A DNA stretch of 64,000 nt from Planctomycetota bacterium (GTDB taxonomy: Bacteria > Planctomycetota > UBA1135 > UBA2386). Shown here piece by piece: positions 1 to 59,224 of the stretch (position 1 is the stretch's first letter; the number at the start of each line of letters is the position of its first letter). The position numbers and the translations under genes are program-made. The notes below the pieces were generated by a model, which did not search any database, had not been told where the DNA came from, and saw only the letters and a list, made by a program, of their open reading frames with translations. Location: the NCBI GenBank assembly GCA_016794565.1, contig JAEUHQ010000103.1, positions 34,409 through 98,408 of the forward strand, written 5' to 3'.

Positions 1-501
1 ATCGCACCGGTCGTCGCCGGCGGCGGCAGTACGAACACCGCGCTGCTCGCTTGGGACGAGACGAACACGAGCTCGCCGTTCACCGGCAGCGTCGTCGGAC
101 GGTTCTTCGCGGCGATGGTCGGTGCGCCGCCGGTCTTCCTGAGCCCCGGCTGCGGCAACGGCGGCACGGCGAGCGCCACGGGCCCGTTCTCGCCGGGCAA
201 CGACCAGTTCGCGTTCGCCCTGTCCGGTGGCGACCCGACCGCGCCGTTCGCCCTGATCAGCCTCAGCCTCGGCGGCTCGTCGGTCCTCTGCGGCTGCGAA
301 CTCACGAACTTCCTCGTGCTCGAGGCCACGCTCGCGCAGGCCGGCAGCTCCACCTACGCGTTCAAGCCGTGGTGCGACCCGAGCTACCTCGGCACGGACA
401 TCGAGTTCCAGTGGCTGCTGTGGCCCGCCGCGCAGAGCCCGTGCCCGATCGTGGAGAACCTCGCCGCCAGCAACCGGATGCTCGTCACGCTGCAGCCGTA
501 G
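1..501 (+). CDS. Family A secreted paralog, copy A1 (C-terminal fragment; start lies upstream of window)
   Basis: Open in frame from window position 1 and ends at TAG 499-501. The C-terminal 128 aa (115-501) are ~90% identical to the C-terminus of the 2786-4954 product, including GCGNGG, LCGCELTNFLVLEATLAQAG and KPWCDPSYLGTDIEFQWLLWPAAQSPCP. Confidence 0.6.
   Translation: MAPVVAGGGSTNTALLAWDETNTSSPFTGSVVGRFFAAMVGAPPVFLSPGCGNGGTASATGPFSPGNDQFAFALSGGDPTAPFALISLSLGGSSVLCGCELTNFLVLEATLAQAGSSTYAFKPWCDPSYLGTDIEFQWLLWPAAQSPCPIVENLAASNRMLVTLQP
115..501 (+). repeat. Direct repeat copy 1 (~390 nt, ~90% identical to 4568-4954, with a perfect ~110-nt block)
   Basis: Nucleotide alignment of the 3' ends of A1 and A3. 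The stretch tacgcgttcaagccgtggtgcgacccgagctacctcggcacggacatcgagttccagtggctgctgtggcccgccgcgcagagcccgtgcccgatcgtggagaacctcgccgc is identical in both. Confidence 0.8.
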
Positions 502-584
502 GGCCGCTGCGCCGGGAACGCGAACTTCGTGCGAACGGCGCGCCCCTCCGGTTCGCTGCCCCCCGGGAGGCCTCGATCCGAGCC

Positions 585-2771
585 ATGAACCGCCATCTCC
601 CCCGCTGGGCAGCCGCCGCGGCGCTGTCCCTCCTCGCTCCGTCCGTCCTCGCCCAGAACCCCGGCACGTTCCACCTGCGCCTCAGGGAACAGGCTGCGCT
701 GCAGCAGCTCGACGGCGAACTCTGGGGCATCGGCCCCGACTTCAAGGCCGCGTTCCGCCCGGACGGTGTCGAGTTCACCCCGGCGCTCGGCCGGCGCGCG
801 GCGCGGAACCACCCGGTGACGCTGCGCACGGTCTCGGTCGGTCGCGGCACGACCGCGGCCGCGGTCCCGGCGGCGGTACCGGAGGCGGCCGGGCAGCGGG
901 CCCGCTACGACCGCGGCGACGTCGCGGAGCGCTACGACGTGACCCCACGCGGGCTCGAGCAGTCGTTCGTGTTCGACCGCCTTCCCGCCGGCGACGGCGA
1001 CCTCGTCGTGCGCGTCGCGGTCGAGACCGATCTGCCGCTGGTGCCAGGCACGGCGGACGGCCTCCGGTTCGAACTGCCCGAGGTCGGCGGCGTCGCGATC
1101 GGCGGCGTCACGGGCATCGATGCTGCGGGCGAGAACACGCGCGGAACGATCACCTGCGACGGCCGGGTCGTCGAACTCCGACTGCCCGCGGCATTCGTCG
1201 ACGGTGCAGCGCTGCCGCTCGTGCTCGATCCGCAGATCGGCGCGGTGTTCCCGGTGACGAGTTCGACGCAGGACTACCAGGATCCGGAACTGACGGCGCC
1301 CTGCGTCTCCGGCGACGTGTACCTCTGCGTCTTCGAACGTGAGTTCAGCGCGACCGACCGCGACATCCGCGGCATCCGCGTCGACGGGTCCGGCGCCGTC
1401 ACTGGTTCGTTGTTCGCGCTGACGACCGGCACGGGCGACGACCGCGATCCGACCGCCGCGGCCGTGCCGATGCGGAGCGCGTGGCTCGCGGTGTGGACGC
1501 GCGGCGGCGACCTGTTCACGCGCTCCGTCGCGTCGACGGGGACCGTGAGCAACGAGTTCACCGCGGTGTCGGGCGCCAACAACCAGATCGAACCCGACCT
1601 CGGCGGCGACGCGACGGGGACCGTGGACGACCTCGTGCTGGTGTTCCGCAACTCGTCGCTGAACGCGGTCCAGTGCAGCACGATGACGCTGTTCTCGAAC
1701 GGCATCATCGCGACGTCGGCGCCGGCGACACTCGGTACGACGATCGCCGGCAACAACATCGGCCGCCCGCGCATCGCGCACGACGGCGGCGCGCTCGGCC
1801 GCTACCTGATCGTCTACCCGCTGACGCCGGGCTTCAGCGGCAACACGAAACCGCAGCTCGTGCTGATCGACCGCGACGTGAACGTTCTCGCGACCGGCGC
1901 GATCACGAACGGTGGCAACGACAACGACCGGCCCGACGTCGACGGCGACGGCCGCAACTGGGTCGTGGTCTTCGAGGACGAGTTCATCGAGGGCACTCAG
2001 GACAACGACGTCGTCGCGATCGCGGTCTGGCATCACGAGGCCGGCGCATCGCTGCAGATCGGCGCGCCGCAGTTCGTCACGAACATCGCGAGCGTGAACG
2101 AGACGGACCCCGTCGTCGCGTGCTTCGGCAACGGCTCCGCGCTGGTCGGCTGGCGCCGGCACAGCGGTCTCGTCGCCGCGAACACCGACCTCTTCTGCAA
2201 GACGGTCGACCAGCTCAGCTGCACGACGTGCGAACCGACCGTGCTGCTCGCGAACACCACCAACATCGAGACCAACTTCGCGATCGAGTGCCACCCGTCG
2301 ACCGTGAACGAAGGGATCGTGCTGTGGGAAGTGTCGACGTCGAGCAGCGGCAACGGCGACCTCGACGCCGCGATCTGGGACGCGGAGGACGGCGACGTGG
2401 TGACCCCGTTCGGCGGCGAAGGCTGCGGTCCGAACATCTACTCCGTCGCGGGCTGCGCTCGCGTTGGCAACGCGGGGTTCCAGGTGTGGGTCCGCGGTTT
2501 GTCGATCCCGACGAGCTCCGTGTTCGTGCTGTCGCTGAGCCAGGGCTTCCTGCAGTGCGGCCCCTGCCGGATCTACCCCGACATCTACTCCGGCCTCGTG
2601 CTGTACCCCGTGGCCGGCATCAGCGGCGCGGTGGTCGGCCTCTCGATCCCGAGTGAGCCGGCGCTCAGCGGAATGCGGTTCTACACGCAGTACCTCGTGC
2701 CGGCCTCGGCCCCCCTGTGCACGTGGCTCGGTCGCGACGTCACCAACGCCCTCTCCATCACCATCCAGTGA
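585..2771 (+). CDS. Family A secreted paralog, copy A2 (728 aa): signal peptide, periodic VW-containing repeats, divergent Cys-containing C-terminal module
   Basis: ATG at 585 is in frame with ORF 51-2771. N-terminus MNRHLPRWAAAAALSLLAPSVLAQ is a signal peptide. Real-protein composition, unlike the upstream R-rich extension. Repeated motifs AWLAVW, NWVVVFEDEF, ALVGWRR every ~55 aa. The C-terminal ~120 aa carry CGPN..C..QCGPC cysteines. Confidence 0.7.
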   Translation: MNRHLPRWAAAAALSLLAPSVLAQNPGTFHLRLREQAALQQLDGELWGIGPDFKAAFRPDGVEFTPALGRRAARNHPVTLRTVSVGRGTTAAAVPAAVPEAAGQRARYDRGDVAERYDVTPRGLEQSFVFDRLPAGDGDLVVRVAVETDLPLVPGTADGLRFELPEVGGVAIGGVTGIDAAGENTRGTITCDGRVVELRLPAAFVDGAALPLVLDPQIGAVFPVTSSTQDYQDPELTAPCVSGDVYLCVFEREFSATDRDIRGIRVDGSGAVTGSLFALTTGTGDDRDPTAAAVPMRSAWLAVWTRGGDLFTRSVASTGTVSNEFTAVSGANNQIEPDLGGDATGTVDDLVLVFRNSSLNAVQCSTMTLFSNGIIATSAPATLGTTIAGNNIGRPRIAHDGGALGRYLIVYPLTPGFSGNTKPQLVLIDRDVNVLATGAITNGGNDNDRPDVDGDGRNWVVVFEDEFIEGTQDNDVVAIAVWHHEAGASLQIGAPQFVTNIASVNETDPVVACFGNGSALVGWRRHSGLVAANTDLFCKTVDQLSCTTCEPTVLLANTTNIETNFAIECHPSTVNEGIVLWEVSTSSSGNGDLDAAIWDAEDGDVVTPFGGEGCGPNIYSVAGCARVGNAGFQVWVRGLSIPTSSVFVLSLSQGFLQCGPCRIYPDIYSGLVLYPVAGISGAVVGLSIPSEPALSGMRFYTQYLVPASAPLCTWLGRDVTNALSITIQ

Positions 2772-2785
2772 ACGGGATCCCGACC

Positions 2786-4954
2786 ATGCGACTCTCCTCC
2801 TTCGCGCTCCTGCTCGTTCCGTTCACGCCGCTGCTCGCCCAGGAACCGCCGCGTCCCGCCTTCGATCTCCGCGCCACGTACGGCGTGATCCGCGCCGACG
2901 ATGGCACCGCGTGGACGATCGGCGAGGACTACAAGGCGTGCTGGACCGGCCGCGGCCTCACGTTCACGCCGGCCCTCGGCGAACGGGCGCGCGCGAACCG
3001 CGACCTCTCGCTGCGCGTCGATCGCGTGCAGCGCGGCGCAGTCACCGTTCTCGCTCCCGTCGACGCCGCGGCGCCCGAGATCGGCGAGCGTCACCTCGCG
3101 GTGGTTCGTGGCGAGGTCACCGAACGCTACGACGCGCGGCGGGACGGCGTCGAGCAGAGCTTCGTGTTCGCGACGCGGCCCGCGGGCGAAGGCGACCTCG
3201 TCGTGCGCCTCGCAGTGGAGACCACGATGACGGCCCGCACCGAGACCGACGGCACGCTGTTCTTCCACGACGGCGAAGTCGGCGGCGTCCGCATCGGCCA
3301 CGTCACCGGCGTCGACCGCGACGGTCGTCGCACCCGCGGCTCGCTGCGCACACTCGACGCGAGTGCGATCGAACTGCGGCTGCCCGCCGACTTCGTCGAC
3401 GGCGCCAGCTACCCGATGACGCTCGATCCGCTGCTGGCGACGGCGTTCCTCGTCGGCAGCGGCAACGACGACCAGCACGTCGACGCGGCGCACGGCGCGT
3501 TCGACGGCAACTGGCTCGTCGTGTGGCAGACCGTCTTCTCCTACTTCGACCAGGACATCCGCGCGCAGCGCGTCGCGAGCAACGGCTCACTCGTCGGCGC
3601 CGTGATGTCGCCGTTCCCCACCTCGACGCCCGAGACCAACCCGTCGGTGTGCTACGTGCGCAGCAAGAACATGCACGTGCTGTGCTGGAACGAAGCGACC
3701 GTCCCGTTCGGCCCGTTCACGCTGCGCGCGCGCAGCGTCGGCACGTCCGCGTTCGGCGCCGTCGTGAACGTCTCCGGCAGCGGCGGCGCCAGCGGCGGCA
3801 CGTTCCGCACGTGCGGCGATCGCTCCAACACCGGCAGCAAGGCCCTCGTCGTGTGGAACAGCACCGCAAACAGCGGCACGACGATCGTCGCGACGACGCT
3901 CGACCTCACCGCGACGGGTCTGCTCACCGCGAGTGCCGGCATCGACGTGTCCACCGCGACGGGCCTCTTCACCGACTCGTTCGTTCTCGGCAAGAGCCGC
4001 ACCCCCACCGGCCAGGTGCTGCTCGGCGCCGCGCTGCCGTTCTTCGCGGTGCTCTTCTACGCGCAGGCGCTCAGCTACGACGGCGCGATCGCCGGCACGA
4101 AGCTCGCGGTCGGAACGATCGGCCCGAACGGCTTCCGTACGATCGCGATCGACGGCGACGGCCCGCAGAACGTCGCCGTGTGGCGCGACTCGGCGAACAC
4201 GCTGCAATGCCGGACGGTGACGTGGAACGGCACCGCGCTCTCACTCGGCACGCAGACCACACTGACGAGCAACCCCGGCGTGTCGTGCGACATCGGACTC
4301 CTGGGCGAACGCTACGTCGCGGTATGGAGCGAACCGACCGCGAACCCGTTCGACGACGACCTCGTCGGCATCGCGCTGAAACCCGACTGCAGCGTCTGCA
4401 GCAACAAGTTCGCGTTGACACAGGTCGATCGACCGAGCGCGATGCTGCCGTGCGTCGCCCCGACGTTCGCGAGCGGCACGTCCGGCGGACAAGCGCTGAT
4501 CACGTGGGAAGAACGCGACATCACGCCGCCATTCCGCGGCAGCATCGCGGCTCAGCGCTTCGACGCGATGGTCGGCGCACCCGCCGTGTTCCTCAGCGCC
4601 GGTTGCGGCAACGGCGGCACCGCGACCACGGTCGGCCCGTTCTCGCCGGGCAACGACGACTTCGCGTTCAGCCTGTCCGGCGGCGACCCGACCGCGCCGT
4701 TCGCGTTGATCAGCCTGAGCCTCGGCGGCTCGTCGATCCTCTGCGGCTGCGAACTCACGAACTTCCTCGTCCTCGAGGCCACCCTGGCCCAGGCCGGCGC
4801 GTCGCGCTACGCGTTCAAGCCGTGGTGCGACCCGAGCTACCTCGGCACGGACATCGAGTTCCAGTGGCTGCTGTGGCCCGCCGCGCAGAGCCCGTGCCCG
4901 ATCGTGGAGAACCTCGCCGCGAGCAACCGCAGCCTCGTCACGCTGCGGCCGTGA
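2786..4954 (+). CDS. Family A secreted paralog, copy A3 (722 aa)
   Basis: ATG at 2786 (MRLSSFALLLVPFTPLLAQ signal peptide) is in frame with ORF 2717-4954. It starts 14 nt after the A2 stop. Repeats include WLVVWQT, ALVVWNS, NVAVWRD, YVAVWSE and ALITWEE. The C-terminal 128 aa are nearly identical to A1. Confidence 0.7.
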   Translation: MRLSSFALLLVPFTPLLAQEPPRPAFDLRATYGVIRADDGTAWTIGEDYKACWTGRGLTFTPALGERARANRDLSLRVDRVQRGAVTVLAPVDAAAPEIGERHLAVVRGEVTERYDARRDGVEQSFVFATRPAGEGDLVVRLAVETTMTARTETDGTLFFHDGEVGGVRIGHVTGVDRDGRRTRGSLRTLDASAIELRLPADFVDGASYPMTLDPLLATAFLVGSGNDDQHVDAAHGAFDGNWLVVWQTVFSYFDQDIRAQRVASNGSLVGAVMSPFPTSTPETNPSVCYVRSKNMHVLCWNEATVPFGPFTLRARSVGTSAFGAVVNVSGSGGASGGTFRTCGDRSNTGSKALVVWNSTANSGTTIVATTLDLTATGLLTASAGIDVSTATGLFTDSFVLGKSRTPTGQVLLGAALPFFAVLFYAQALSYDGAIAGTKLAVGTIGPNGFRTIAIDGDGPQNVAVWRDSANTLQCRTVTWNGTALSLGTQTTLTSNPGVSCDIGLLGERYVAVWSEPTANPFDDDLVGIALKPDCSVCSNKFALTQVDRPSAMLPCVAPTFASGTSGGQALITWEERDITPPFRGSIAAQRFDAMVGAPAVFLSAGCGNGGTATTVGPFSPGNDDFAFSLSGGDPTAPFALISLSLGGSSILCGCELTNFLVLEATLAQAGASRYAFKPWCDPSYLGTDIEFQWLLWPAAQSPCPIVENLAASNRSLVTLRP
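4568..4954 (+). repeat. Direct repeat copy 2 (partner of 115-501)
   Basis: Same alignment. The intervening A2 3' end (2390-2771) is much more diverged. Confidence 0.8.
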
Positions 4955-5044
4955 CGATCACTTCGGTGAGTGGTCCACGCGCCCGCAGGGAGATCTGTCC
5001 GTGCGAGCCGCAAGCATGGCCGCGACGGTCGGATCCTCCCGCGC

Positions 5045-6556
5045 TCAGCCCGGCAGCAACCCGCCTTCGAGCTTCACGTAGGCACGCATGCCCTGGCGGC
5101 CGCCTTCGCGGCCGAACCCACTCTCCTTGAAGCCACCGAACGGCGACGCGGCGTCGAAGCGGTTGAACGTGTTGTTCCAGACCACGCCCGCCTTCATGCG
5201 TTCGGCGCACCACAGGATGCGTGCGCCCTTGTCGGTCCAGATGCCCGCGGACAACCCGTAGCTCGTGTTGTTCGCCTTCTCGACGGCTTCTTCCGGCGTG
5301 CGGAACGTCAGCACCGCGAGCACCGGCCCGAACACCTCTTCCCGCGCGATGCGGTGGCTCATCGAGACGCCCGTGAACATCGTCGGCGGGAACCAGAATC
5401 CCTTGCCCGGCAGATCGCACGCGGCCTGGTGCATCGACGCTCCGCCCTCCGCGCCGGCGGCGCAGAGTTCGCGGATGCGCGCGAGCTGCGCCTTGCTGTG
5501 GATCGCGCCCATGTCCGTGTTCTTGTCGAGCGGGCTGCCGACGCGGATGCGCGCCATGCGCCGCTGCAGCTTCTCGACGAACAGATCGTGCACGCTCTCC
5601 TGCACGAGCAGGCGTGAACCGGCGCAGCAGACGTGCCCTTGGTTGAAGAAGATGCCGCGCACGACGCCCTCGACCGCCTGGTCGAGCGCCGCGTCCTCGA
5701 ACACGACGTGCGCCGCCTTGCCGCCGAGTTCGAGCGTCAGCTCGACACCACGGCCGGCGACCGCCTTCTGGATCTCCTTGCCGACTTCCGTGCTGCCCGT
5801 GAACGCGACCTTCGCGAGGCCCGGATGGCGAACGAGCGCCTGGCCGGTGCGGCCGTCGCCGGTGATCACGTTGACGACGCCGGGCGGCAGCCCCGCCTGC
5901 TGCAACACTTCGCAGAGGCGCAGCGCGGTGAGCGGCGACGTCTCCGCGGGCTTCAGCACGACCGTGTTCCCCGCCGCGAGAGCGGGCGCGATCTTCCACG
6001 CGGCCATCAGCAGCGGGAAGTTCCACGGGATCACCTGCCCCACCACACCGAGCGGTGCGGGAGTCTGTCCGGGGAACAGCAGGTCGAGCTTGTCGGCCCA
6101 GCCCGCGTGGTAGAAGAAGTGCTGCGCCGCGAGCGGCACGTCGACGTCGCGCGTCTCCTTGATCGGCTTGCCGTTGTCGAGCGTCTCGAGCACGGCGAAC
6201 TCGCGCGCCCGCTCGAGCAGGATGCGAGCGATGCGGAACAGGTAGCGCGCGCGGTCCTCGCCGGAGAGCGCCTTCCACTTCGGGAACGCACGCTGCGCGG
6301 CCTTCACCGCTGCGTCGACGTCCTTGTCGCCGGCTTGCGCGACCTCGGACAGCGTCTTCTCCGTCGCGGGGTCGATCGTCGCGAAGTGCTCGCCGGACTT
6401 CGGCTTCGTCCACGCGCCGTCGACGAACAGTTCGTGGCGAGGTGCGATCGTCACGTGATCGGTCGCTTCGGGTGCTTGCTCGTAACGCCACACGCGGCCG
6501 AACTCGAGCTCGGGCTTCGCCGCGGAATCCTGCGTCTTCTGGTCGTTCTTGGCCAT
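5045..6556 (-). CDS. NAD(P)-dependent aldehyde dehydrogenase (503 aa)
   Basis: Full ORF with ALDH-family motifs: catalytic region FFNQGHVCCAGSRLLV, ELGGKAA and GTVVLKPAE. Lies immediately downstream of deoC on the same strand. Confidence 0.9.
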   Translation of the reverse strand: MAKNDQKTQDSAAKPELEFGRVWRYEQAPEATDHVTIAPRHELFVDGAWTKPKSGEHFATIDPATEKTLSEVAQAGDKDVDAAVKAAQRAFPKWKALSGEDRARYLFRIARILLERAREFAVLETLDNGKPIKETRDVDVPLAAQHFFYHAGWADKLDLLFPGQTPAPLGVVGQVIPWNFPLLMAAWKIAPALAAGNTVVLKPAETSPLTALRLCEVLQQAGLPPGVVNVITGDGRTGQALVRHPGLAKVAFTGSTEVGKEIQKAVAGRGVELTLELGGKAAHVVFEDAALDQAVEGVVRGIFFNQGHVCCAGSRLLVQESVHDLFVEKLQRRMARIRVGSPLDKNTDMGAIHSKAQLARIRELCAAGAEGGASMHQAACDLPGKGFWFPPTMFTGVSMSHRIAREEVFGPVLAVLTFRTPEEAVEKANNTSYGLSAGIWTDKGARILWCAERMKAGVVWNNTFNRFDAASPFGGFKESGFGREGGRQGMRAYVKLEGGLLPG

Positions 6557-6571
6557 GGCGTGTGCTCCGCG

Positions 6572-7480
6572 TCAGTCGGCGCTGAAATCGGTCGGGCGCT
6601 GGTAGCGGCCCGTGCGTTCCTTCTCGAGCTGCATCAGCACGTCGTTCAGCAGGGAACTCGCTCCGAAGCGGAACCACTGCGGCGACAACCAGCGGTCGCC
6701 GCACGTCTCCGCGACGAGCACCAGGTACTTGAGCGCGTCCTTGCTGGTGCGGATGCCGCCCGCGGCCTTCACGCCGACCATGCGTCCGGTCTCGAGATAG
6801 TGGTCGCGCACCGCCTCGAGCATCAGCAGCACGACCGGCAACGTGCTCGCCGGTGCCACCTTGCCGGTGCTCGTCTTCAGGAAGTCGCCGCCCGCGAGCA
6901 ACGCGATGCGGCAGGCACGCCGGATGTTGTCGTACGTGCGTAGCTCGCCGGTCTCGAGGATCACCTTGAGGTGCGCGTCGCCGCAGACCTCCTTCACGGC
7001 GCAGATCTCGTCGAAGACCTGACCGTAGCGTCCGGCGAGGAAGGCGCCGCGGTCGATCACCATGTCGATCTCGGTGGCACCGGCGGCGACCGCGAGCTGC
7101 ACTTCGCGCAACTTGGTCGGCCGGTCGGTGCGTCCCGACGGGAAGCCGGTCGCGACGGCGGCCACCTGCACGGTGCTGCCGCGCACCGCCGCCGCGGCGA
7201 CCTCGACGAGATCCGGGTAGACGCACACTGCCGCGCACGACGGCACGTCGGCGCGGGCCGGCAACGGCCGCATCGCCTTCTGGCACAACTGCCGCACCTT
7301 GCCCGGCGAGTCCATGCCTTCGAGCGTGGTGAGGTCCATCATCGAGATGGCGAGGCAGAGACCCTGCACCTTCGCCTTCTTCTTGATGGATCGCGTGCCG
7401 AGATCGGCAGCGCGCGTCTCGAGCGCGACCGCGTCGACGGGCGGCACACGGAACTCGACGGGAGACAGCGAGTGGGACAT
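6572..7480 (-). CDS. deoC: Deoxyribose-phosphate aldolase (302 aa)
   Basis: Start MSHSLSPVEF, with cat at 7478-7480 on the plus strand. DeoC motifs LKVILETGEL and Schiff-base lysine region GGDFLKTSTGKV. The 5' extension of the ORF is R-rich artefact. Confidence 0.85.
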   Translation of the reverse strand: MSHSLSPVEFRVPPVDAVALETRAADLGTRSIKKKAKVQGLCLAISMMDLTTLEGMDSPGKVRQLCQKAMRPLPARADVPSCAAVCVYPDLVEVAAAAVRGSTVQVAAVATGFPSGRTDRPTKLREVQLAVAAGATEIDMVIDRGAFLAGRYGQVFDEICAVKEVCGDAHLKVILETGELRTYDNIRRACRIALLAGGDFLKTSTGKVAPASTLPVVLLMLEAVRDHYLETGRMVGVKAAGGIRTSKDALKYLVLVAETCGDRWLSPQWFRFGASSLLNDVLMQLEKERTGRYQRPTDFSAD

Positions 7481-7570
7481 CGCGGGACACGCGATCGTGC
7501 CGTATCCGCAAGGGGAAGTCACGGCCGCGGCCTCCAGTCGCCGCGGTGCCGGCGCCGATGACGCCGGGAC

Positions 7571-8452
7571 ATGATCGAAGTCCGCATTCCCCTGCACGAC
7601 CAGGGTACGGGTCACCGTGGCGAACTGCGCATCGCGGGTGGCGTGTGGGCGGGCGACGTCTGCGCCTTCGAGTTCGTCGAGACGCTGCACGGCATGTCCG
7701 GAACCGCTGTCTGCGACTGGCGCGAGCCGGAGACGCGACTGTTCGTCGACGACGGAGCTGCGGCCGACCCGAGCGCGAACCTGCTGCTCGACCGGATCCG
7801 CACCCTGCTGCTCCCGTTCCACCGCGGCTCGTGGAAGCGCGCCGCCGCCGCGCGGATCGCGGCGCTCCACACCTGCGATCACCGGGGCACGGGGACCGGC
7901 TCGACGGAGAGCGCCCGGCAGGCCGCGTTCGAGAAGGACGTTCTCGACCAGGTCGTGCGACTCGGCGAGCCGCGCAAGGTGCTCGACGTCGCGTGCTCGG
8001 TCGGCGAAGGCGTGAGGCAGCTGCGTGCGCGCGGCGTCGAAGCGTGGGGCTGCGACCCGAGTCCCGATCTCCACCGCATCGCGCTTCCCGACGTCGCCCG
8101 ATGGCTGCGTCGCGGCGCGGTCGACGCGCTCCCGTTCGGCCCCGAGGACGGATTCGACACCTTGCTCGCATTCGACGTCTTCCAGCACCTCGCCGAGGAC
8201 CGCATCGCGCGGATGGTCACCGAATTCGCGCGGCTCGGCGTGCAGCGCGTCGTCGCGCGCATCGCCCTGTGCGAGTTCTCCGATCCGGGCCACGTCACGC
8301 TGCGTCCGCTGTCGTGGTGGGATCGCCAGATGGCACCCTGGTTCCAGCGACGCGCGGGGAAGGCCCTTCCCGAAATGGCGATCGCGTCCGGTCTCGATCC
8401 CGCGAACTTCCTGCGCGTCTACGAACTCTCCAAGGTGCCCGCGGCGGTGTGA
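7571..8452 (+). CDS. Class I SAM-dependent methyltransferase (293 aa)
   Basis: MTase motif I VLDVACSVGEG and acidic motif II LAFDVFQHL. Normal amino-acid composition. Confidence 0.6.
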   Translation: MIEVRIPLHDQGTGHRGELRIAGGVWAGDVCAFEFVETLHGMSGTAVCDWREPETRLFVDDGAAADPSANLLLDRIRTLLLPFHRGSWKRAAAARIAALHTCDHRGTGTGSTESARQAAFEKDVLDQVVRLGEPRKVLDVACSVGEGVRQLRARGVEAWGCDPSPDLHRIALPDVARWLRRGAVDALPFGPEDGFDTLLAFDVFQHLAEDRIARMVTEFARLGVQRVVARIALCEFSDPGHVTLRPLSWWDRQMAPWFQRRAGKALPEMAIASGLDPANFLRVYELSKVPAAV

Positions 8453-8458
8453 CCGCGG

Positions 8459-8881
8459 TCAGCGTCGCCCGCGCTCCACGTCGGCGAACGTGAACGGGCG
8501 CGGCAGGAGCCGTCGCAGCGACGTGCGCCGCACCGCTCCTTTCGTGCCGGCGAGCAGCACGTGCTGCCCCTTGCCGAACTCGGCGAGCACCTGGCGACAG
8601 GCCCCGCACGGACTCGCCGGCTCGGCGAGGCCCGTCACGACCGCGACCGCGAACAACTCGGTGACGCCCGCGGCGACCGCGGCGAAGACGGCGGCGCGCT
8701 CGGCACAGATCGTGAGCCCGTAGCTCGCGTTCTCGACGTTGCAGCCGACGAAGACCCGGCCGTCGCCCGCCAGCACGGCGGCGCCGACCTTGAACTTCGA
8801 CGCGGGCGCGTAGGCGTTCGCCCGGACGGCGCGGGCGGCGGCGACGAGGCGGGCGGCGGTGGCGGCGTCGATCCGGCTCAC
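8459..8881 (-). CDS. cdd: Cytidine deaminase (140 aa)
   Basis: Zinc-binding motifs CAERAA and PCGACRQ of the homotetrameric cytidine deaminase family. Confidence 0.85.
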   Translation of the reverse strand: MSRIDAATAARLVAAARAVRANAYAPASKFKVGAAVLAGDGRVFVGCNVENASYGLTICAERAAVFAAVAAGVTELFAVAVVTGLAEPASPCGACRQVLAEFGKGQHVLLAGTKGAVRRTSLRRLLPRPFTFADVERGRR

Positions 8882-9432
8882 GCGTCACTCCGGTGCCGCG
8901 CACTGCGACCGGCGCCGGCGATCAGCGCCACGAGCGTCGCCACCTGGATGCCGATCTGCAGTGCACAGACCACGAACGGCAGCAGCGAACCGTGATGATC
9001 GACCGCGTGTTCGATGTCGACGAAGCCCTGGAGCAGCACGTAGCCGGCCGCCGCGGTCGCGATCGCGAGCACGACTCCGAACAGGCGCACGTCGGTCTGC
9101 AGACGATCGAGCAGGATGCCGAGGAACGCGACGATCGGCAGACCGCCCGTGAGTGTCGGCAACAACCACGACACGGGCTCGGGGCCGACGTCGACGAACA
9201 GGCACGCCCAGATCCCGACGATCGCGCCGATGCAGAAGAGCTTGCCCGCGTGGCCCGGCCAGATCGCCGCGAGACCGCAGCCCGCCGCGAAGAGCATCGG
9301 CAGGAGCCAGGCGAAGCGCGCCTTCACGGCGGGTTGCGGCAGGGAGACGATCTCGGTCATGGCCAGCCCGGCGAACGGGCCGCGGATCATCCCACGTCGG
9401 AGGACAGCGAGGAAGACCTGCGGCGGTAGCAT
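8878..9432 (-). CDS. Small integral membrane protein, unknown function (start uncertain; alternative ATG at 9360)
   Basis: 4-5 predicted transmembrane helices (LLPMLFAAGCGLAAIW, IGAIVGIWACLFV, LPIVAFLGILL, GVVLAIATAAAGYVLL). 4-nt overlap with the cdd start suggests coupling. Confidence 0.5.
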   Translation of the reverse strand: MLPPQVFLAVLRRGMIRGPFAGLAMTEIVSLPQPAVKARFAWLLPMLFAAGCGLAAIWPGHAGKLFCIGAIVGIWACLFVDVGPEPVSWLLPTLTGGLPIVAFLGILLDRLQTDVRLFGVVLAIATAAAGYVLLQGFVDIEHAVDHHGSLLPFVVCALQIGIQVATLVALIAGAGRSARHRSDA

Positions 9433-10760: not shown

Positions 10761-12959
10761 ATGGTGCGTCGCATGCGAACTCCGATCGCCGCTGCCGCGA
10801 CGCTGACGTGCATGGCCGTGCTCGCCGCCCAGGAAGGCGTGCCGCGACCCCAGGGCCTCGTGCCCGAACAGATGTGGCCCGCGCCCGGGGAAAGCGACTG
10901 GAAGAAGCCCGTCGTCATCCAGTGGCAGCGCACGTGGGACGACGCCGTGCGCCTGTCGCAGGCGACGAAGCGCGCGATCCTCGTGTGCGTCAACATGGAC
11001 GGCGAGATCGCCAGCGAGCACTACGCCGGCATTCGCTATCGCGACCCCGAGATCGGCAAGCTGTACGAACCGTACGTCTGCGTGATCGCGTCGGTCTACC
11101 GCCACAACCCGCGCGACTACGACGACCAGGGGCGCCGCATCCCGTGCCCGCGCTTCGGCTGCGTCACGTGCGGCGAGCACATCGCCCTCGAACCGCTCGT
11201 GTACGAGAAGTTCCTGAAGGGCAAACGCATCGCGCCGCGCCACATCATGGTCGAGCTCGACGGCAGCGAGAGCTACGACATCTACTACCGGTGGGACACC
11301 GCATCGGTGTTCAAGGACATCGCGGACGGCATCACGAACCGGAAGGTGCAGACGGTGCCCCTCGTGAAAGGCGACCGTTCGCTGCTCGAGCGCCTCGAGA
11401 GTCCCGACAGCGCCGATCGACAGCAGGTCGAGAGCGAGTTCGCCAAGGCGACTCCCGAACAGCGCCGCGCGATGGTCGCCGCCGCGATCGGCGCCGGCGA
11501 ACTGGCGCCCGTCGAGATCCTGCGTCTCGCGGCGTGGGGCCTCGATCCGGCGCTGGCGCAGGAAGCGCGCAAGGGCATGGTCGTCGCCAAGGACCCGGGC
11601 ACCGTCAACCTGATCGCCGAGACGCTGCGCGCGCCGCTCGAACACGAGGAGCGCAAGGAGCTGGTCGCGGCCTTGGGCCGCTTCGGTTCGACGTCGACGT
11701 ACGCACAGGCGCTCGCGACCGCACATCAGGGTCTCGACGGCACGACCACCTCCATCGACACCGGCAAGTGGTCGCGCGCACTCGCCGCGCAGACCTACGC
11801 ACCGCCCGCGAGCGAGGATCTCACGACGGCGCTCGAGCAGAGCGACAAGGCCCTGGCCGCCGAGCCGTCGGACCCCGCGGCCCGGCTCGACGCAGCCGAA
11901 GCGAGCCTGCTGCAGGCGCTCGACACGACATCGAGCGGCGGGCGCGGATCGGCGCGGCGAACCGCGGCGGCCCGGCAGTCCCTGCTCTCCGATGCGGAAC
12001 GTCAGGCGAACCTGGCGATCGCGCAAGGTGCGACCGGCTGGCGCCCCACCGCGTTGCGGGCGATCGCCGCGTTCCACCTCGGGCGCGTGCCGGAGGCGCA
12101 CCAGCTCGCGGTCGCGGCGGCGCCCGACCTGCCCCCCGATGCGCCGGGTCGCGTCGCGATGGAAGTGCTCGCGCTGTTCGCCGTGGCCCGGCAGCACGCG
12201 ATCGTCGCCGCGGTGCGCAACAAGCAGACGTGGCCGCCGCAGTGGGCCGCCGACGTGCACGCGGCCTACGCCGTGCTCGCGCACCATCCGCTCGGCCGCG
12301 ACGAACACGCCGCGGATCACTACGACTTCCTGAAGTTCTTCAGCAGCCCCGAGACCGACGCGGTGCTCGACCGCGCCCTCGAGCGCTTCCCCGAGTCGGC
12401 GCTGCTGCACCAGCGGCTCCGCGACCGCATCCTCGAACGGCGCGACCCGGACGCACTCGAGGCCGAGTACGCACGCCGGTTGAACGCGCCGGAAGCGCGC
12501 CCGTCGCTGTCGTGGTTCGCCGGCTACGCGTCCCTCGTCGCAGCCGAGCAGAACCGCCGCAACCAGCGCCGCGAGAACGCTCTCGCCGCGTACCGGCGCG
12601 GCATCGAGCACTTCGAGACGTACGCGAAGCGCTCCGGCAACGAAGACGGCAACCACTACGTCGCGATGGCGAACGCCGGCATCGCGCGCCTGCAGCTCGA
12701 CGCCGGCGACCTGCCCGGCGCGCTGGCCTCGCTGCAGCTCGCCTTCCGCACCGCACCGCTCGCGGCGGCCGCGGTCGACGGGCTCGGCGTCACCGCGGTG
12801 CAGACCGCGGACATGCTGCGTGCGCGCGCCGTCGAGACGAACGCGCAGGACGTCGTACAGGCCGTCGACCAGGCCCTCACGGCACTGCCCGACGAGGCGC
12901 TGATCCCGCCCGAGTACGAACGCGCCTCCGGCAACACGAAGATCCGCCGCCGGCGGTGA
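10761..12959 (+). CDS. Secreted hypothetical protein (732 aa) with N-terminal Cys-rich region and helical-repeat C-terminal half
   Basis: Signal peptide MRTPIAAAATLTCMAVLAAQ. The Cys cluster CPRFGCVTCGEH, plus a CV 25 aa upstream. Ala/Leu-rich helical C-terminal part with real-protein composition. Confidence 0.65.
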   Translation: MVRRMRTPIAAAATLTCMAVLAAQEGVPRPQGLVPEQMWPAPGESDWKKPVVIQWQRTWDDAVRLSQATKRAILVCVNMDGEIASEHYAGIRYRDPEIGKLYEPYVCVIASVYRHNPRDYDDQGRRIPCPRFGCVTCGEHIALEPLVYEKFLKGKRIAPRHIMVELDGSESYDIYYRWDTASVFKDIADGITNRKVQTVPLVKGDRSLLERLESPDSADRQQVESEFAKATPEQRRAMVAAAIGAGELAPVEILRLAAWGLDPALAQEARKGMVVAKDPGTVNLIAETLRAPLEHEERKELVAALGRFGSTSTYAQALATAHQGLDGTTTSIDTGKWSRALAAQTYAPPASEDLTTALEQSDKALAAEPSDPAARLDAAEASLLQALDTTSSGGRGSARRTAAARQSLLSDAERQANLAIAQGATGWRPTALRAIAAFHLGRVPEAHQLAVAAAPDLPPDAPGRVAMEVLALFAVARQHAIVAAVRNKQTWPPQWAADVHAAYAVLAHHPLGRDEHAADHYDFLKFFSSPETDAVLDRALERFPESALLHQRLRDRILERRDPDALEAEYARRLNAPEARPSLSWFAGYASLVAAEQNRRNQRRENALAAYRRGIEHFETYAKRSGNEDGNHYVAMANAGIARLQLDAGDLPGALASLQLAFRTAPLAAAAVDGLGVTAVQTADMLRARAVETNAQDVVQAVDQALTALPDEALIPPEYERASGNTKIRRRR

Positions 12960-16168: not shown

Positions 16169-18010
16169 TCAATAGGTATTGAAGATCGACTGCAGACCGT
16201 TGCTCAGCACGCCACCGAATGCGTTCTGGCCGTTGGGCAGGCTGAACGGCGTGAAGAGGCCCAGCACCTGACCATAGAAGCTGAGGCCCGGCGACAGCGG
16301 CTGCGGCATCGACAGCACGACCGACGACGTCGGAGCAGTGCCAGGCAGCGGGATCGTGACGTCGAGCGACAGGATGTTCAGGTTGCAGCCCGGCATGTCG
16401 AGGAAGCCCATGTCGAGGCCGCCGGGGAACGGAGCCACACTGAACATCAGGATGCCGAGGCCGATGCCGAGCGGCGGCACGAGGTCGATCATGTTCGAGG
16501 CCGTGTACGTGATCGGCACGGTCGGATTGCCGGGCGTGTAGATCGGCGCCGGGGACGCGGACAGGGCGAGGGCCTGGGTCGCGTTGTAGTCCGGCTGCGT
16601 GAGGAACGGCGGCACGGTCGCGAGGCTGATCGAACCCGGATCGAGCGACAGACCCGGCGAGTAGCCGACGACCATGTCGATACCGGCCGAGTTCTGCATC
16701 GCGTTCCACACGAACTTCACGTCGCCGTTGGCGAGGTTGAACTGCAACTGCCAGCGATCGGAGACGCCGGTCGTGTTGTAGCGGACGACGTTCTCCCACG
16801 TGATGTAGAGCACACCACCGACTTCCTGGCTCTTGATCGCTCCGCCCGCCGACGGGTCGTAGTCGGCATTGCTGCGGAAGGACGGGATCACCGCGTTGAG
16901 CAGTTCGAACACGTCGCCGTAGGCAGCGACGTTGTTGTTGCCGATGCCGCCCATGTTCACGAATCCGTTCGAGCACACCGACAGCGTGCCGACCGGACCT
17001 GCGGGCGTCGGGAAGGGGATGCTCGGCGTGACGTCGACTTCGGAGTCGTCGGTCAGCGCGAGCGTCGAGGCGCCACCGGTCGGCGCGACGTAGGTCCCGC
17101 CGCCCCACGTGACGAAGTAGCCCTGGCCAGCGGGCGACATCGTCATCGAGTTGCCCGCCAGGGTCGCCGACCCGGCCGGCGTGCCGAAGTACTGGTAGAA
17201 GGCCTGCGACGCGCGCGGTCCGTAGCAGCCGGAGCCGTACGCGACGTGGTCGGCGCCCGTGCACACGACCGACGAGGTGTAGCCACCGAGCCCGTTCGGC
17301 GAGAAACGCAGCGTCTTGCCGGCGAGCGGGAAGGCACCGAGGTATTCACCCCAGAGGATGCCGACGTTGCCCGAGTTGGCGCCCGCGAGCAGATCGGAGG
17401 CCACCTCCGCCCCCGTGCCCGCCGCGTTGCCGGCCGACACGCCGATCCAGACCGCGTCGACGGCGTTGCCGGGGCAGTTGATGTCGTACGCGTAGTCGAT
17501 GTTGCCGTTGCTGTACAGCGTGCAGCTGAAGCTGAACTGGTCGGTCGGGGTCTGGTACCGCGCGACGTTCTGCCACGTGATCGTGACCTGGTTCGCCGTC
17601 GCCGTGTTCACGAAGATCTCCCACGGGCCGAGCGTCGATTGCTGGATGTCGTCGCCGTAGACGACGAGGCGCGGCGAGCCGAACGCGGCACCGCGCAGTT
17701 CCCCGAGTGTGTCGATCAGGAACTGGATCGGAGCGACGAGGCCGTAGTTCGCGTCGGAGAGATAGACGTGCCCGTTCGAACCGACCCAGATGCGGTTGCA
17801 GACCTGGCCGGGCGCCGTGGTCGGCATCGGGAAGGTGAACCCGAGCTGGATCGGCAGGATGCTGCGGCCTTCGTCGTGGATCGGGTAGCCGCCCCACACC
17901 GAGTACATGGAACCGGATTGTGCGGCGCCGCCGATGTTGGTGAAGCACTGCGCCTGCGACACCGCGGCGAGGGCCGCCACGGCGGAGAAGGAAGCGATGA
18001 GACGATTCAT
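16169..18010 (-). CDS. Family B secreted paralog, copy B2 (613 aa; two internal modules)
   Basis: Complete ORF with signal peptide [22 protein letters not shown]. Duplicated module ITWQNVARY...[18 protein letters not shown] and ITWENVVRY...[17 protein letters not shown]-terminal tail [13 protein letters not shown]...LSNGLQS. Confidence 0.75.
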
Positions 18011-19301: not shown

Positions 19302-19517
19302 CGCAACGGGCAGAAACGGCGAACGGACGCACCGAGGCGACTCGCGACCGGGGTGGCCACCCCACCGGGGAAAGGCCGAAGGCGGGACGGCGGCGGCGAC
19401 CCGTCCATCGCAGCGCGGCGTTGCCGGAGCGCCCCGGCATCCCGCGACGACCGCCCTCGTTGCCTGCCGTCCGCGGGCTACTATTCGGTGCGCAGCACCT
19501 CGGCTGGCATCCCCCGC

Positions 19518-29079: not shown

Positions 29080-29684
29080 GGCTCCGGAATACCGGGCCGA
29101 TGCGCCGCGGACAACGTCGCGGCGAATCGCTCGAGCTCCGGCCACAGTTCGTCGAAGTCCGCGGCGAATGCCGCGCGCTCCCGCCGCAGGATCTCGCCGC
29201 CCGCGGCGAGCGGCGTCGGGCGTGCGACGCGGCCCGCCATGCGCTCGAGCACGGCGTCGATGCCCGCGAGCGTCGAGTACTCGAAGAGCCAGCGTTCGCG
29301 CCGCATCCACGGCAGCACGCTCCGCAGACGCGGCGGCAGGTGCGCTTCGTTTCGCGCCAGCAGATCGTGCACGTCGTCGACGAACTGCGTCAGCGGACGG
29401 CCATCGCCGAAGCGATCCCAACCGCTCGCGAGGAAGTGGTCGAAGTACACGTCGACGAGCACTCCGGCGAAGCGACGGAACGGCGGCTCGAACCGACCGC
29501 GGGCGCGGCGCACCACCGTGTGCGCGTCGACGAAGCGGTCGATCGCCCGGTGCTGCTCGATTCCGGCGCGCACGTCGTCGTGCAGCAGCGCCGTGTCGAC
29601 GCCGCGAACGAAGTCGCCGGCGAGATTGCCGACCCGCACGAGCGGGGCAGCGGGCGCGAGTCGCAGGTGTGCCAGCCAGTTCAC
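29076..29684 (-). CDS. Acyl carrier protein phosphodiesterase (AcpH)-like, GTG start (202 aa)
   Basis: [10 protein letters not shown]...[10 protein letters not shown] resembles the AcpH N-terminus (MNFLAHLHLA). 4-nt overlap with the rnhA start. Confidence 0.55.
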
Positions 29685-29792
29685 GCCGGCAGCATCCGCC
29701 GCAGTGCACGGCGCGCCAACGTGCGACCCGGAAACGCGAACGGGCGCCCGCGGCGCCCGTTCACGATGCCGGCGAGCCGGCACACGCGCTCG

Positions 29793-31691
29793 TCAGAACA
29801 GGTTGCAGAGCGAACGGACGCCGTTGCTCAGCACGCCGCCGAACGCGTTCTGGCCGTTCGGCAGGCTGTTCGGCGCGAAGAGCGACAGCGCCTGCGAGTA
29901 GAAGCTCACGCCGGGAGCCAGCGGCTGCGGGATCGACAGCGTCGCCGTCGCGGTCGGCGCCGTGCCCGACATCGGGACCGTCACGTCCAGCGACAGGATG
30001 TTCAGGTTGCAGCCGGGCATGCCGAGGAAGCCCATGTCCAGGCCGCCCGGGAACGGGGCGACGCTGAACATCAGCAGCGTGATGCCTACGCCGAACGGCG
30101 GAACGACGTCGACGACGTTCGTCGCCGTGTAGGTGACCGGCACGGTCGGACCGCCGAGCGTGAACACCGGGTCCGGCGACGCCGACAGCGCGAGCGGCTG
30201 CAGGACAGTGTCCGGCGAGGTGATTGCAGGCGTTCCCGTCGCGAGGCTGATCGAGCCAGGGTCGTTGGAGGGGCCGGCCGGCGAGTAACCCACGACCGTG
30301 CCGCCGAACGGCGTCGTCGCGGTCATCAGGTCCCACACGATCAGGACCTCACCGGTGTTGAGGTTCAACTGGAACTGGAAGCGGTCCGTGTCCTGCGTCG
30401 TGAAGTAGCGGACGAGGTCGATGTAGGAGACGACGAGCAGCGTGCCGCCGACCGTCGGAACCTCTTCCCAGCTGATCGAGCCGGTGACACCCGGGTCGTA
30501 GTCCGCGTTGCTGCGGAAGCTCGGCACGAACGCGTTGAGGAGTTCGTACACCGAGCCGTAGGCCCAGACCGGATTCGAGCCGGACGGGCCCATGTTCACG
30601 AAGCCGTTCGAGCACACCGACACCGTCGGCACGGCGCCGCTGATGGTCGGGAAGGCGAGCGACGGGGTGATGTCCGCTTCGCTGTCGTCCGTGAGGAACA
30701 GCTGGTTCGCGCCGCCGGTGGGAGCGATCCACGCGCCGCCGCCCCACGTCACGAGGTAGCCGGTGACGAGCGGGTTGAAGCGCACCGAGTTGCCGGTGAG
30801 GCCGGCGGACGACGACGGGCCGTCGGGGAAGTACTCGTAGATGGCCTGCGACGCGGACACGTAGTCGTAGCAGCCGCTGCCGTACGGATCGTTGCGGGCG
30901 CCCGCGCAGATCAGGTTCGACGTGAAGCCGCCGATGCCGTTCGGCGAGAAGCGCACCGTCGTGCCGGCGAGGTCGAACGGATTGCCGAAGAACGGATCGA
31001 ACGTCTGGTAGAGCAGGCCGAGCGTGCCGGAGTCGGCATTGCCGCTGAGATCGCTCTCCGGCGTGGCGAACGAACCGACGCCACCGCCGATGGACACGCC
31101 GACGATGTACGGAGTGCTGCCCGCCAGCGCAGTCGCCGAGTCGTACGAGACGTCGATCTCGCCCGACGCGTAGAGCGTGCAGCTGATGTTGAACGAGCCG
31201 GTCGGGCTGCCGCCCGAGTAGAGCCACACGTCGACCCACGTGACCCTGCACTGGCCGGGCACCGACTGGTCGATGGCAACCTGCCACGCGCTGTTCGTGC
31301 CGAAGTCGAGGTCGCTGCCGAACGCCGCGATGCGCGGCGAGGCGATCGAGCTGAAGCCGCGCAGCTCGTCGAGGTAGGTGATGCCGTAGTCGGTCGGCTG
31401 CAGCAACCCGTAGTTGCCGTCGGTCAGGTAGATCTCGCCGTTCGACGAGACGTAGATGCGGTCGATGGTCCGCGGGGCTCCCGCCATCGGGAACACGAAG
31501 CCGAGCGGGACCGACGGCACGGTCAGGCCTTCGTCCGACACCGTGTAGAAGGATGTCGTCGGCAGCAGCGTTGCAGCAGCGCCGGAGGGAGCTCCGAGAC
31601 ACTGCGCCGCGGCTGCGGACGCGAGGAGAGACGCCACGAGCACACTGGGGGCATGGAAAGACACAGGAACCTCCGTTTGGAGACGAGTCAT
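29793..31691 (-). CDS. Family B secreted paralog, copy B3 (632 aa)
   Basis: Start MTRLQTEV (cat at 31689-31691) with signal peptide ...LLASAAAAQC. Collinear with B2 throughout: duplicated VTW...F.FQLNL module and tail [13 protein letters not shown]...LSNGVRS. Blocks of >30 nt are identical to B2 at 29985-30060 vs 16361-16440. Confidence 0.75.
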   Translation of the reverse strand: MTRLQTEVPVSFHAPSVLVASLLASAAAAQCLGAPSGAAATLLPTTSFYTVSDEGLTVPSVPLGFVFPMAGAPRTIDRIYVSSNGEIYLTDGNYGLLQPTDYGITYLDELRGFSSIASPRIAAFGSDLDFGTNSAWQVAIDQSVPGQCRVTWVDVWLYSGGSPTGSFNISCTLYASGEIDVSYDSATALAGSTPYIVGVSIGGGVGSFATPESDLSGNADSGTLGLLYQTFDPFFGNPFDLAGTTVRFSPNGIGGFTSNLICAGARNDPYGSGCYDYVSASQAIYEYFPDGPSSSAGLTGNSVRFNPLVTGYLVTWGGGAWIAPTGGANQLFLTDDSEADITPSLAFPTISGAVPTVSVCSNGFVNMGPSGSNPVWAYGSVYELLNAFVPSFRSNADYDPGVTGSISWEEVPTVGGTLLVVSYIDLVRYFTTQDTDRFQFQLNLNTGEVLIVWDLMTATTPFGGTVVGYSPAGPSNDPGSISLATGTPAITSPDTVLQPLALSASPDPVFTLGGPTVPVTYTATNVVDVVPPFGVGITLLMFSVAPFPGGLDMGFLGMPGCNLNILSLDVTVPMSGTAPTATATLSIPQPLAPGVSFYSQALSLFAPNSLPNGQNAFGGVLSNGVRSLCNLF

Positions 31692-31859
31692 GGACACCGG
31701 TCGCAACTGGGAACGAGGGCGCGCCGGTGGTGGTCGGGAACCTACTCCAACCGCGCAAGCGCGTCGACTCCGCTTGTCGGTGACGGATTTGTCCCACCGC
31801 GCGCGCGGAAGCACACGCGTGCCTCGGTCGCAGGCCGTGCCTACACTCCCCGCCCGCCG

Positions 31860-47460: not shown

Positions 47461-47533
47461 GCCATGGGCATCGGCCAGGAGTGCCCCGCGAGTGCAGTCG
47501 GGTCCGCTCATCGACCCTGCCGATACCGAGGCC

Positions 47534-48070
47534 ATGAAGCGCCGGCACCGATGGGCCGCGAACGACTGCTCGGGAGCGACGCTCATCGACCTGATGCTCG
47601 TCGTGACGATCCTCGGCATCGTCACGGCGGTGGCCGTACAGACCTTCGACACCGACGAGATGGCCGTCGATGCACTGGCGCGCCAGATCGTCGCCGACAT
47701 CTACCGTTCGCAGAGCCTCGCCATCCGGACCAACACCGGTGTCGGCGTCGCGTTCGACAAGACGGCGAACACGTCGAAGTTCGTTCTCGCGGACGGTTCG
47801 GATCCGGCGACGCAGGAGGCGACGCTCAAAGCGCGCCCCGAAGCCGATGCGGCGGCGGTGGACGAACTCGTCGCCGCGCGCTCCATCGGCAACAAGGCCT
47901 ACGACGACGGCAGGATCACCGCCGTCGACTTCGGTGGAGCGTCCAAGGTCGTCTTCGCGGCCGACGGCCGCGCCGCCGCGCCGGGTTACGTGCAGGTCGT
48001 TCAGGGCGACGCATGGCTCCGGGTCCGCGTCGACGACGTGACGGGTCGGGTGACCATCACCGGCCCCTGA
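47534..48070 (+). CDS. GspH/FimT-like pseudopilin (178 aa)
   Basis: MKRRHRWAANDCSGATLIDLMLVVTILGIVTAVAV is a prepilin-type N-terminus, with a GspH-like C-terminal beta domain. Divergent from the PilX-like gene. Confidence 0.6.
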   Translation: MKRRHRWAANDCSGATLIDLMLVVTILGIVTAVAVQTFDTDEMAVDALARQIVADIYRSQSLAIRTNTGVGVAFDKTANTSKFVLADGSDPATQEATLKARPEADAAAVDELVAARSIGNKAYDDGRITAVDFGGASKVVFAADGRAAAPGYVQVVQGDAWLRVRVDDVTGRVTITGP

Positions 48071-48151
48071 TCCGCCCCTCGTTCGGCGACAGCCTCAAGC
48101 CCGGCCACAGCAGGCGCCGATGCACGAGCGTCGATCACCATGGATCACCCG

Positions 48152-48655: not shown

Positions 48656-48773
48656 GGCCGTGAACGATCCATGGCCGGCGCCCCCCCAGCGCATCCCCCG
48701 GCACCTGCCCGAGGAGGCCGGTGCACCCCGACCGCGCGGCTGAGGCCGTTCGCCGGAGTGCCCGGGCGCGGCC

Positions 48774-55651: not shown

Positions 55652-55653
55652 CC

Positions 55654-56375: not shown

Positions 56376-56376
56376 C

Positions 56377-59222: not shown

Positions 59223-59224
59223 GC

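Follow-up and report, generated by a model that had tools for sequence, protein, structure and literature searches.

We analysed a 64-kb window of planctomycete DNA (~70% G+C; contig JAEUHQ010000103.1; 'the window' means this whole stretch) that opens with three adjacent genes, A1, A2 and A3, for large proteins with signal peptides. We propose, at roughly even odds (a probability of about 0.5), that A1-A3 are diversifying exported binding proteins that end in a sorting or anchoring domain common throughout the lineage. The argument turns on the last ~125 residues, here called the C-terminal domain (CTD), which profile searches indicate to be a lineage-wide, strictly C-terminal module on many unrelated exported passengers. 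It also turns on a propeller that appears to be the fastest-diverging part of the proteins, a pattern that would be expected of a variable binding surface. As far as sequence searches reach, none of the A1-A3 domains is covered by an annotated family, and the A1-A3 family, so far found only in uncultured Planctomycetota, is uncharacterized.

Three exported paralogues with a diverging propeller

The A1-A3 proteins are identical to entries of a metagenome-assembled genome (MAG) named 'Planctomycetes bacterium' (locus tags JNK78_10095, JNK78_10100 and JNK78_10105). An earlier reading made from the letters alone (the sequence-only reading) had described three consecutive same-strand paralogous genes, and both the open reading frame (ORF) calls and a family hidden Markov model (HMM) agree with it, giving the features below. 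The full form of A1 is a 728-aa protein (P0005, JNK78_10095), and the part inside the window comprises its last propeller blade and the CTD.

1..501, +: A1, truncated by the window edge to its 3' end (the final 166 codons and the stop); CTD HMM 1.3e-37
585..2771, +: A2, complete coding sequence, 728 aa (P0050, JNK78_10100); ORF call, family HMM 9e-231
585..653, +: A2 signal peptide, aa 1-23 (ending SVLA before Q); read from the sequence, putative cleavage site
660..1232, +: A2 conserved N-terminal all-beta domain, ending PLVLDP at residue 216; similarity to A3
1233..2372, +: A2 predicted seven-bladed propeller region; HMM, motifs, homology to the A3 model
2373..2768, +: A2 C-terminal immunoglobulin (Ig)-like domain, divergent subtype; CTD HMM 1.8e-32
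2786..4954, +: A3, complete coding sequence, 722 aa (P0001, JNK78_10105); ORF call, family HMM 4.5e-235, AlphaFold2 model
2786..2839, +: A3 signal peptide, aa 1-18 (ending PLLA before Q); read from the sequence, putative cleavage site
2843..3430, +: A3 N-terminal all-beta domain, aa 20-215; 81-member alignment, AlphaFold2 model
3431..4573, +: A3 predicted seven-bladed propeller, aa 216-596; motifs, AlphaFold2 model
4574..4951, +: A3 C-terminal Ig/fibronectin type III (FN3)-like beta-sandwich, aa 597-722, ending at the stop codon; CTD HMM 7.8e-37, predicted local distance difference test score (pLDDT) 95.9

Only 83 nt separate A1 from A2 and 14 nt A2 from A3, and these short gaps make co-transcription likely. 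A consensus scan of positions 1-5300 found no promoters or terminators, Rfam and tRNA scans across the window found no Rfam families or tRNAs, and an HMM scan of the window returned no family or CTD match besides A1-A3.

The domain anatomy derives from an alignment of 81 family members and from the AlphaFold2 model of A3, which is all-beta (pLDDT 93.1; predicted template-modelling score (pTM) 0.91). The signal peptides noticed in the sequence-only reading are visible by eye in A2 and A3, and its periodic hydrophobic-V-W motif is present. The beta-propeller-like core that it suggested from this motif is borne out by the model, but its estimate of ~6 repeats is too low, and it overlooked the ~190-aa N-terminal beta domain (N-domain) altogether. 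Specifically, the A3 propeller is seven-bladed in the model, with seven motifs (LVVW244, VLCW298, LVVW354, AVLF421, VAVW463, VAVW511 and LITW571), and A2 likewise has seven (LCVF247, LAVW301, VLVF351, LIVY408, VVVF460, LVGW520 and IVLW578). The A3 propeller also holds a conserved DGDG loop (aa 456-459) and a CxxC pair (C535, C538). The N-domain (aa ~20-215 in A3) is conserved better than any other part of the family proteins and closes with a near-invariant LDP; its near-invariant residues, in A3 numbering, are E113, those of GDLVV136-140 (G136-D137-L138-V140), D177, P210 and D214-P215. Two shorter proteins (P0120 and P0138, 512-543 aa) consist of signal peptide, propeller and CTD without an N-domain, which is therefore dispensable in some members. 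A2 and A3 contain 14 cysteines each, a number that would fit an oxidizing extracytoplasmic location.

Profile searches for a characterized family, which the sequence-only reading had recommended, gave none: A1-A3 have no match in Pfam-A or NCBIfam at E ≤ 1, 43 diverse family members share no Pfam match at E ≤ 0.1, and the family profile matches no PDB sequence at E ≤ 10. The best Foldseek matches of the A3 model are two-domain proteins made of a sandwich and a propeller (sialidases bearing a carbohydrate-binding module (CBM), and the integrin headpiece), with a TM-score of only ~0.3 and sequence identities of 5-12% among the structural look-alikes.

Divergence between the paralogues is unevenly spread. 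A1 and A3 are 52% identical in the N-domain, 39% in the propeller and 90.5% in the CTD, and the corresponding values for A2 and A3 are 47.6%, 19% and 21%; over the first ~300 aa A2 and A3 share 41% identity (BLASTP 5e-52), and beyond the N-domain ~18-21%. The CTD of the A1/A3 subtype shows a conservation of its own. Its identity is 90-95% in comparisons of paralogues as well as of orthologues, against 39-66% for the remaining protein, and nucleotide identity rises from ~55% to ~90% at the CTD boundary (A1 ~100-498; A3 ~4550-4951; locus L001 10001-12175). Identical residues in this CTD use the same codon in a fraction of 0.84-0.86, against a background of ~0.68-0.71, in paralogues and orthologues alike. 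This synonymous conservation could stem from a 3' cassette that undergoes gene conversion or recombination, or from constraint at the nucleotide level.

Word-index searches returned 91 family homologues, nearly all of 710-760 aa, and every source-named match among them is a 'hypothetical protein' of a Planctomycetes/Planctomycetota MAG. For comparison of neighbourhoods, 79 related loci of ~12 kb each (926 kb in total) were fetched from species-representative genomes, nearly all of them uncultured Planctomycetota MAGs, and their six-frame ORFs were scanned with local HMMs. The 10 closest members served as the query, which biases the set to close relatives; the genomes measure up to 7-8 Mb, and a single genome often contributed several loci. 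Tandem arrays of two to at least five copies are frequent among the 80 related loci, and a close relative (MAG GCA_964538915.1) carries four copies in tandem.

A C-terminal domain on unrelated exported proteins

The CTD spans ~125-133 aa and contains five cysteines (C607, C653, C655, C681 and C704 in A3; C614, C624, C658, C661 and C712 in A2). The sequence-only reading had singled out a Cys-rich C-terminal module of ~125 aa with the pattern GCGNGG...LCGCEL...KPWCDP...SPCP. The separate five-Cys domain is confirmed, but the pattern holds for A1 and A3 only: A2 carries a divergent subtype (GCG..GC..CGPC..C) that the same profile still detects (1.8e-32). Nor does the model bear out the disulfide-rich cap for which a structural check had been proposed: it folds the A3 module as an Ig/FN3-like beta-sandwich, with no specific structural match. 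The view that it is not a known sorting signal stands. At E ≤ 1 it matches no Pfam or NCBIfam model, including those for the type IX secretion system (T9SS), PEP-CTERM and MYXO-CTERM, and the CTDs of 10 other carriers likewise match none; its end is a beta strand of the folded domain (...SNRSLVTLRP in one case and ...TNALSITIQ in another, each followed by the stop) and no terminal transmembrane helix is present.

The module recurs widely on other proteins, and the refuting outcome named in the sequence-only reading, its absence elsewhere, did not arise. A CTD profile built from 56 sequences was used in an exhaustive HMMER search of 1.84 billion cluster representatives, of which 10,950 match at E ≤ 1e-3 and 1,521 at E ≤ 1e-10. 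Among the 150 best of the 10,950, the match stops within ~6 residues of the protein C terminus in every case (150/150). Word-index searches with the CTD alignment, or with the CTD of a single FG-GAP carrier, gave no matches, a result that reflects a limit of the index and not absence. The 926 kb of related loci contain 113 CTD-bearing ORFs, essentially all with a single copy, and in ~100 of these the match ends 0-5 residues from the stop codon. Local HMMs divide them as follows.

68 ORFs: N-domain, propeller and CTD
13 ORFs: N-domain and CTD
4 ORFs: propeller and CTD (most truncated by a locus edge)
28 ORFs: CTD only

The passengers of the CTD-only carriers include FG-GAP/VCBS propellers, PD40 repeats, DUF5122/Rax2 propellers, LamG, a combination of Ig, PKD and LamG, and a trypsin-like peptidase. 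Iteration of the CTD HMM raised the number of carriers to 133, and 117 of the 123 with an intact 5' end begin with a signal-peptide-like N terminus. An exported 613-aa protein of the window (16169-18010, -), which has no Pfam match, has by eye a CTD-like ending (...FYGQVLGL...); the iterated CTD HMM was negative for it, and it is not counted here.

These signal peptides share a further trait. That of A2 reads MNRHLPRWAAAAALSLLAPSVLA and that of A3 MRLSSFALLLVPFTPLLA, each followed by Q. The ending is [A/G/S/C]-Q in ~72 of the 81 family members, where Q19 is at least 90% conserved, and in 109 of the 117 CTD carriers that have a recognizable signal peptide. Four exported but unrelated proteins in the window, one of them the secretin, have it too. 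All signal-peptide and Q-site calls are heuristic. Such sites lie at 585-656, 2786-2842, 10761-10850 (+), ~17920-18010 (-), 19353-19450 (+) and 51214-51290 (+) in the window, and in loci L003-L077. An exported 732-aa protein (10761-12959, +; signal peptide ending VLAAQ) has no Pfam family and resembles the A1-A3 family in size, and by HMM it is unrelated. In their sequence, the planctomycete signal peptides look like those that obey the 'Q-rule' (Gln at +1, then pyroglutamate), a feature that PMC5837995 describes as Bacteroidetes-specific.

Neighbouring genes and the type IV filament locus

The genes beside the array encode an aldehyde dehydrogenase, DeoC, a methyltransferase and a cytidine deaminase, in keeping with the sequence-only reading, which had seen no flanking mobile-element genes; the neighbours are housekeeping genes. 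A nucleoside and deoxyribose catabolism cluster (aldehyde dehydrogenase, DeoC aldolase and cytidine deaminase; 5045-8884, -) adjoins the array, and in a related MAG (L001, 942-3176) the genes flanking the array are those for thymidine phosphorylase and for an aldehyde dehydrogenase that is not orthologous.

The same reading had placed a type IV filament locus ~40 kb from the array as a possible secretion route. A locus resembling a type IV pilus (T4P) or type II secretion system (T2SS) does exist at 46847-61838, interleaved with two-component genes, and comprises the following features.

46.8-48.7 kb: GspH-like protein and N_methyl pilin
48.8-49.8 kb: PilM
51.2-53.1 kb: secretin
53.2-56.0 kb: histidine kinase and response regulator
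56.4-58.1 kb: T2SSE ATPase
57.9-59.2 kb: T2SSF
between T2SSF and the final N_methyl protein: GAF histidine kinase
60.9-61.8 kb: second N_methyl protein

The proposed link to the array found no support: ~42 kb with ~35 unrelated genes lies between the two, and neighbour clustering of the 80 related loci found no type IV filament genes recurring beside the arrays. The intervening genes are housekeeping genes, among them those for aldehyde dehydrogenase, DeoC, cytidine deaminase, an Orn/DAP decarboxylase, DAG kinase, DAHP synthase, valyl-tRNA synthetase (ValRS), a RecQ-like helicase, a Ser/Thr kinase, a CNNM/CorC protein and an SPFH protein. In the 2020-aa open frame at 29100-35162 (+), the ValRS domains begin only at ~aa 939, and the long stretch before them probably represents either a separate upstream gene or a spurious extension of the frame in high-GC DNA.

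The only recurrent neighbours in the 80 loci are Ser/Thr kinases fused to FGE-sulfatase-like domains and proteins resembling extracytoplasmic function (ECF) sigma factors. Fusions with a C-terminal FGE-sulfatase-like part were found within 6 kb of family genes as 32 ORFs in 29 of the 80 loci (for example, L037 2952-5783 and L001 17432-20674; loci L001-L076). Both protein types are abundant in planctomycetes generally, and we therefore rejected them as specific partners of the CTD.

Models for the array and known systems

Single-copy and strictly terminal, the CTD is attached within one lineage to many exported proteins that are otherwise unrelated, and from this distribution we infer a role in sorting or anchoring. 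In the scheme we favour, A1-A3 would have arisen by tandem duplication and would be exported by the Sec pathway, with the signal peptide probably cleaved before the conserved Gln. The mature protein would consist of three beta domains presumably stabilized by disulfides: the conserved N-terminal beta-sandwich, the fast-diverging seven-bladed propeller and the ~125-aa Ig/FN3-like CTD. The N-domain and the propeller together would bind ligands in the manner of a lectin, adhesin or receptor, and as propellers are duplicated and drift apart the cell would gain a range of binding specificities. The CTD would serve as a shared handle by which proteins reach the cell envelope or surface or are held there. 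The surface-protein or adhesin role offered in the sequence-only reading would be plausible. A bolder version, which we consider unlikely, has the CTD label cargo for an as yet undescribed system of envelope sorting that belongs to one large, uncultured lineage of Planctomycetota, an independent functional analogue of the T9SS with the Q-rule, and A1-A3 one of its cargo families; such a system might translocate CTD cargo across the outer membrane, attach it covalently or non-covalently to the surface, or both.

Several observations weigh against a sorting or anchoring domain on surface-bound binding proteins. Neighbour clustering found no sorting machinery in the 80 loci, and the recurrent neighbours are not plausible translocons. 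The pTM of 0.91 suggests that the CTD is packed rigidly on the propeller, unlike the flexibly tethered and cleaved CTDs of the T9SS. An Ig-like fold is generic, terminal position alone may reflect a history of domain shuffling, the A1-A3 proteins could be retained in the periplasm, and the signal-peptide and Q-site calls are, as noted, heuristic. These points feed an alternative in which the CTD has no targeting role and is a popular Ig-like structural, spacer or carbohydrate-binding domain spread by shuffling, on what would be ordinary periplasmic or secreted propellers. The generic Ig/FN3 fold without a specific match, the rigidity of the model across domains (pTM 0.91) and the lack of dedicated machinery near the genes are all compatible with it. 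Such domains, however, normally vary in position and occur in tandem, whereas the CTD is single-copy and terminal and is found on very different passengers, nearly all of them signal-peptide proteins, and we hold this alternative to be improbable.

A1-A3 might instead be extracytoplasmic enzymes, for example carbohydrate-active hydrolases or lyases, or transferases like CylK. The active site would then lie where the N-domain meets the propeller, or on the face of the propeller, and the CTD would be an Ig-like accessory for substrate binding or for structure. Foldseek does rank sialidases, with their CBM-like sandwich and propeller, at the top, and the N-domain is the most conserved part and bears the near-invariant E113, D137, D177 and D214. 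Yet identity to all those structures is 5-12%, with no PDB sequence match at E ≤ 10, CAZy-type Pfam families match 0 of the 43 members, and sialidases have six blades against seven here. In addition, the N-domain is also paired with other middle regions, and the ~18% propeller identity between adjacent paralogues suits a variable binding surface better than a conserved active site; on balance, an enzymatic function seems distinctly unlikely to us. Transport of A1-A3 as cargo of the T2SS/T4P-like system ~42 kb downstream is very improbable. That locus is real (N_methyl pilin-like proteins, PilM, secretin, T2SSE ATPase and T2SSF), and A1-A3 would fit the folded, Sec-exported periplasmic intermediates that serve as T2SS substrates. 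The ~35 unrelated genes in between, however, leave no genetic linkage, the neighbourhoods of related arrays differ, known T2SS cargo has no C-terminal tag, and PilM together with the PilS/R-like two-component genes makes the locus look more like a pilus system.

How proteins are delivered to the unusual envelope and surface of planctomycetes is poorly understood. A strictly C-terminal domain that ~11,000 cluster representatives share and that neither Pfam nor NCBIfam contains would offer a concrete handle on this question: it delimits a candidate secretome, and its machinery should be findable by phylogenetic profiling. With at least hundreds of clusters, tandem arrays and propellers that diverge fast, the propeller family could be a repertoire of proteins for binding at the surface. 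Should the CTD prove merely structural, the finding would shrink to a new family of the domain-of-unknown-function (DUF) type, of modest interest.

Among known propeller proteins, the nearest are the seven-bladed lectins PLL, BP39L and CV39L and other bacterial extracellular propellers (YncE and the integrin-alpha/FG-GAP type), at 7-11% identity; they have neither the N-domain nor the CTD. Neither A1-A3 nor the 43 members match FG-GAP or lectin Pfam families, and the Pfam repeats with DxDxDG loops in several blades that define FG-GAP/integrin-alpha propellers are not seen here. CylK (7RON), a Friedel-Crafts alkylating enzyme, joins an N-domain to a seven-bladed propeller; at 12% identity the propeller alone aligns, there is no match at the sequence level, and the array neighbours show no sign of a natural-product gene cluster. 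Neither the Ca-binding N-domain typical of CylK/BrtB-type enzymes nor their catalytic residues (Arg/Tyr/Asp at the domain interface) have been recognized in A1-A3. Sialidases of the BNR type have six blades, Asp-box repeats (SxDxGxTW) and an RIP motif, as opposed to seven blades, no BNR Pfam match and a TM-score of ~0.3 for A3. Among sorting signals, PEP-CTERM, MYXO-CTERM, GlyGly-CTERM and LPXTG are like the CTD in being C-terminal, restricted to lineages and present on many secreted proteins. The tripartite CTERM signals, though, are ~25-35 aa long and consist of a motif, a transmembrane helix and a basic tail, a combination that the A2 and A3 C termini do not have, whereas the planctomycete CTD is a folded 125-aa beta domain.

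The T9SS is not known in Planctomycetota. No T9SS component was named in general Pfam scans of ~30 ORFs of the window, neighbour clustering of the ~12-kb loci revealed no shared machinery, and the T9SS CTD models (PF18962, TIGR04183 and TIGR04131) are matched neither by A1-A3 (E ≤ 1) nor by the 43 members (E ≤ 0.1) or the 10 other carriers. The planctomycete CTD is also longer (~125-133 aa versus ~70-100 aa) and has conserved cysteines. All the same, the T9SS CTD of Bacteroidota (Por_Secre_tail, PF18962/TIGR04183) appears to be its closest analogue, following the same logic without belonging to the same family. Each is a single-copy, Ig-like sandwich confined to the C terminus, and within one lineage each is joined to Sec-exported passengers that are unrelated to one another and number in the hundreds or thousands (on the T9SS CTD and the Q-rule, see PMC11285876 and PMC5837995). 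Signal peptides with Gln at +1 are likewise shared by this planctomycete and Bacteroidetes, and their Q-rule-like form in planctomycetes would challenge the Bacteroidetes specificity of that feature.

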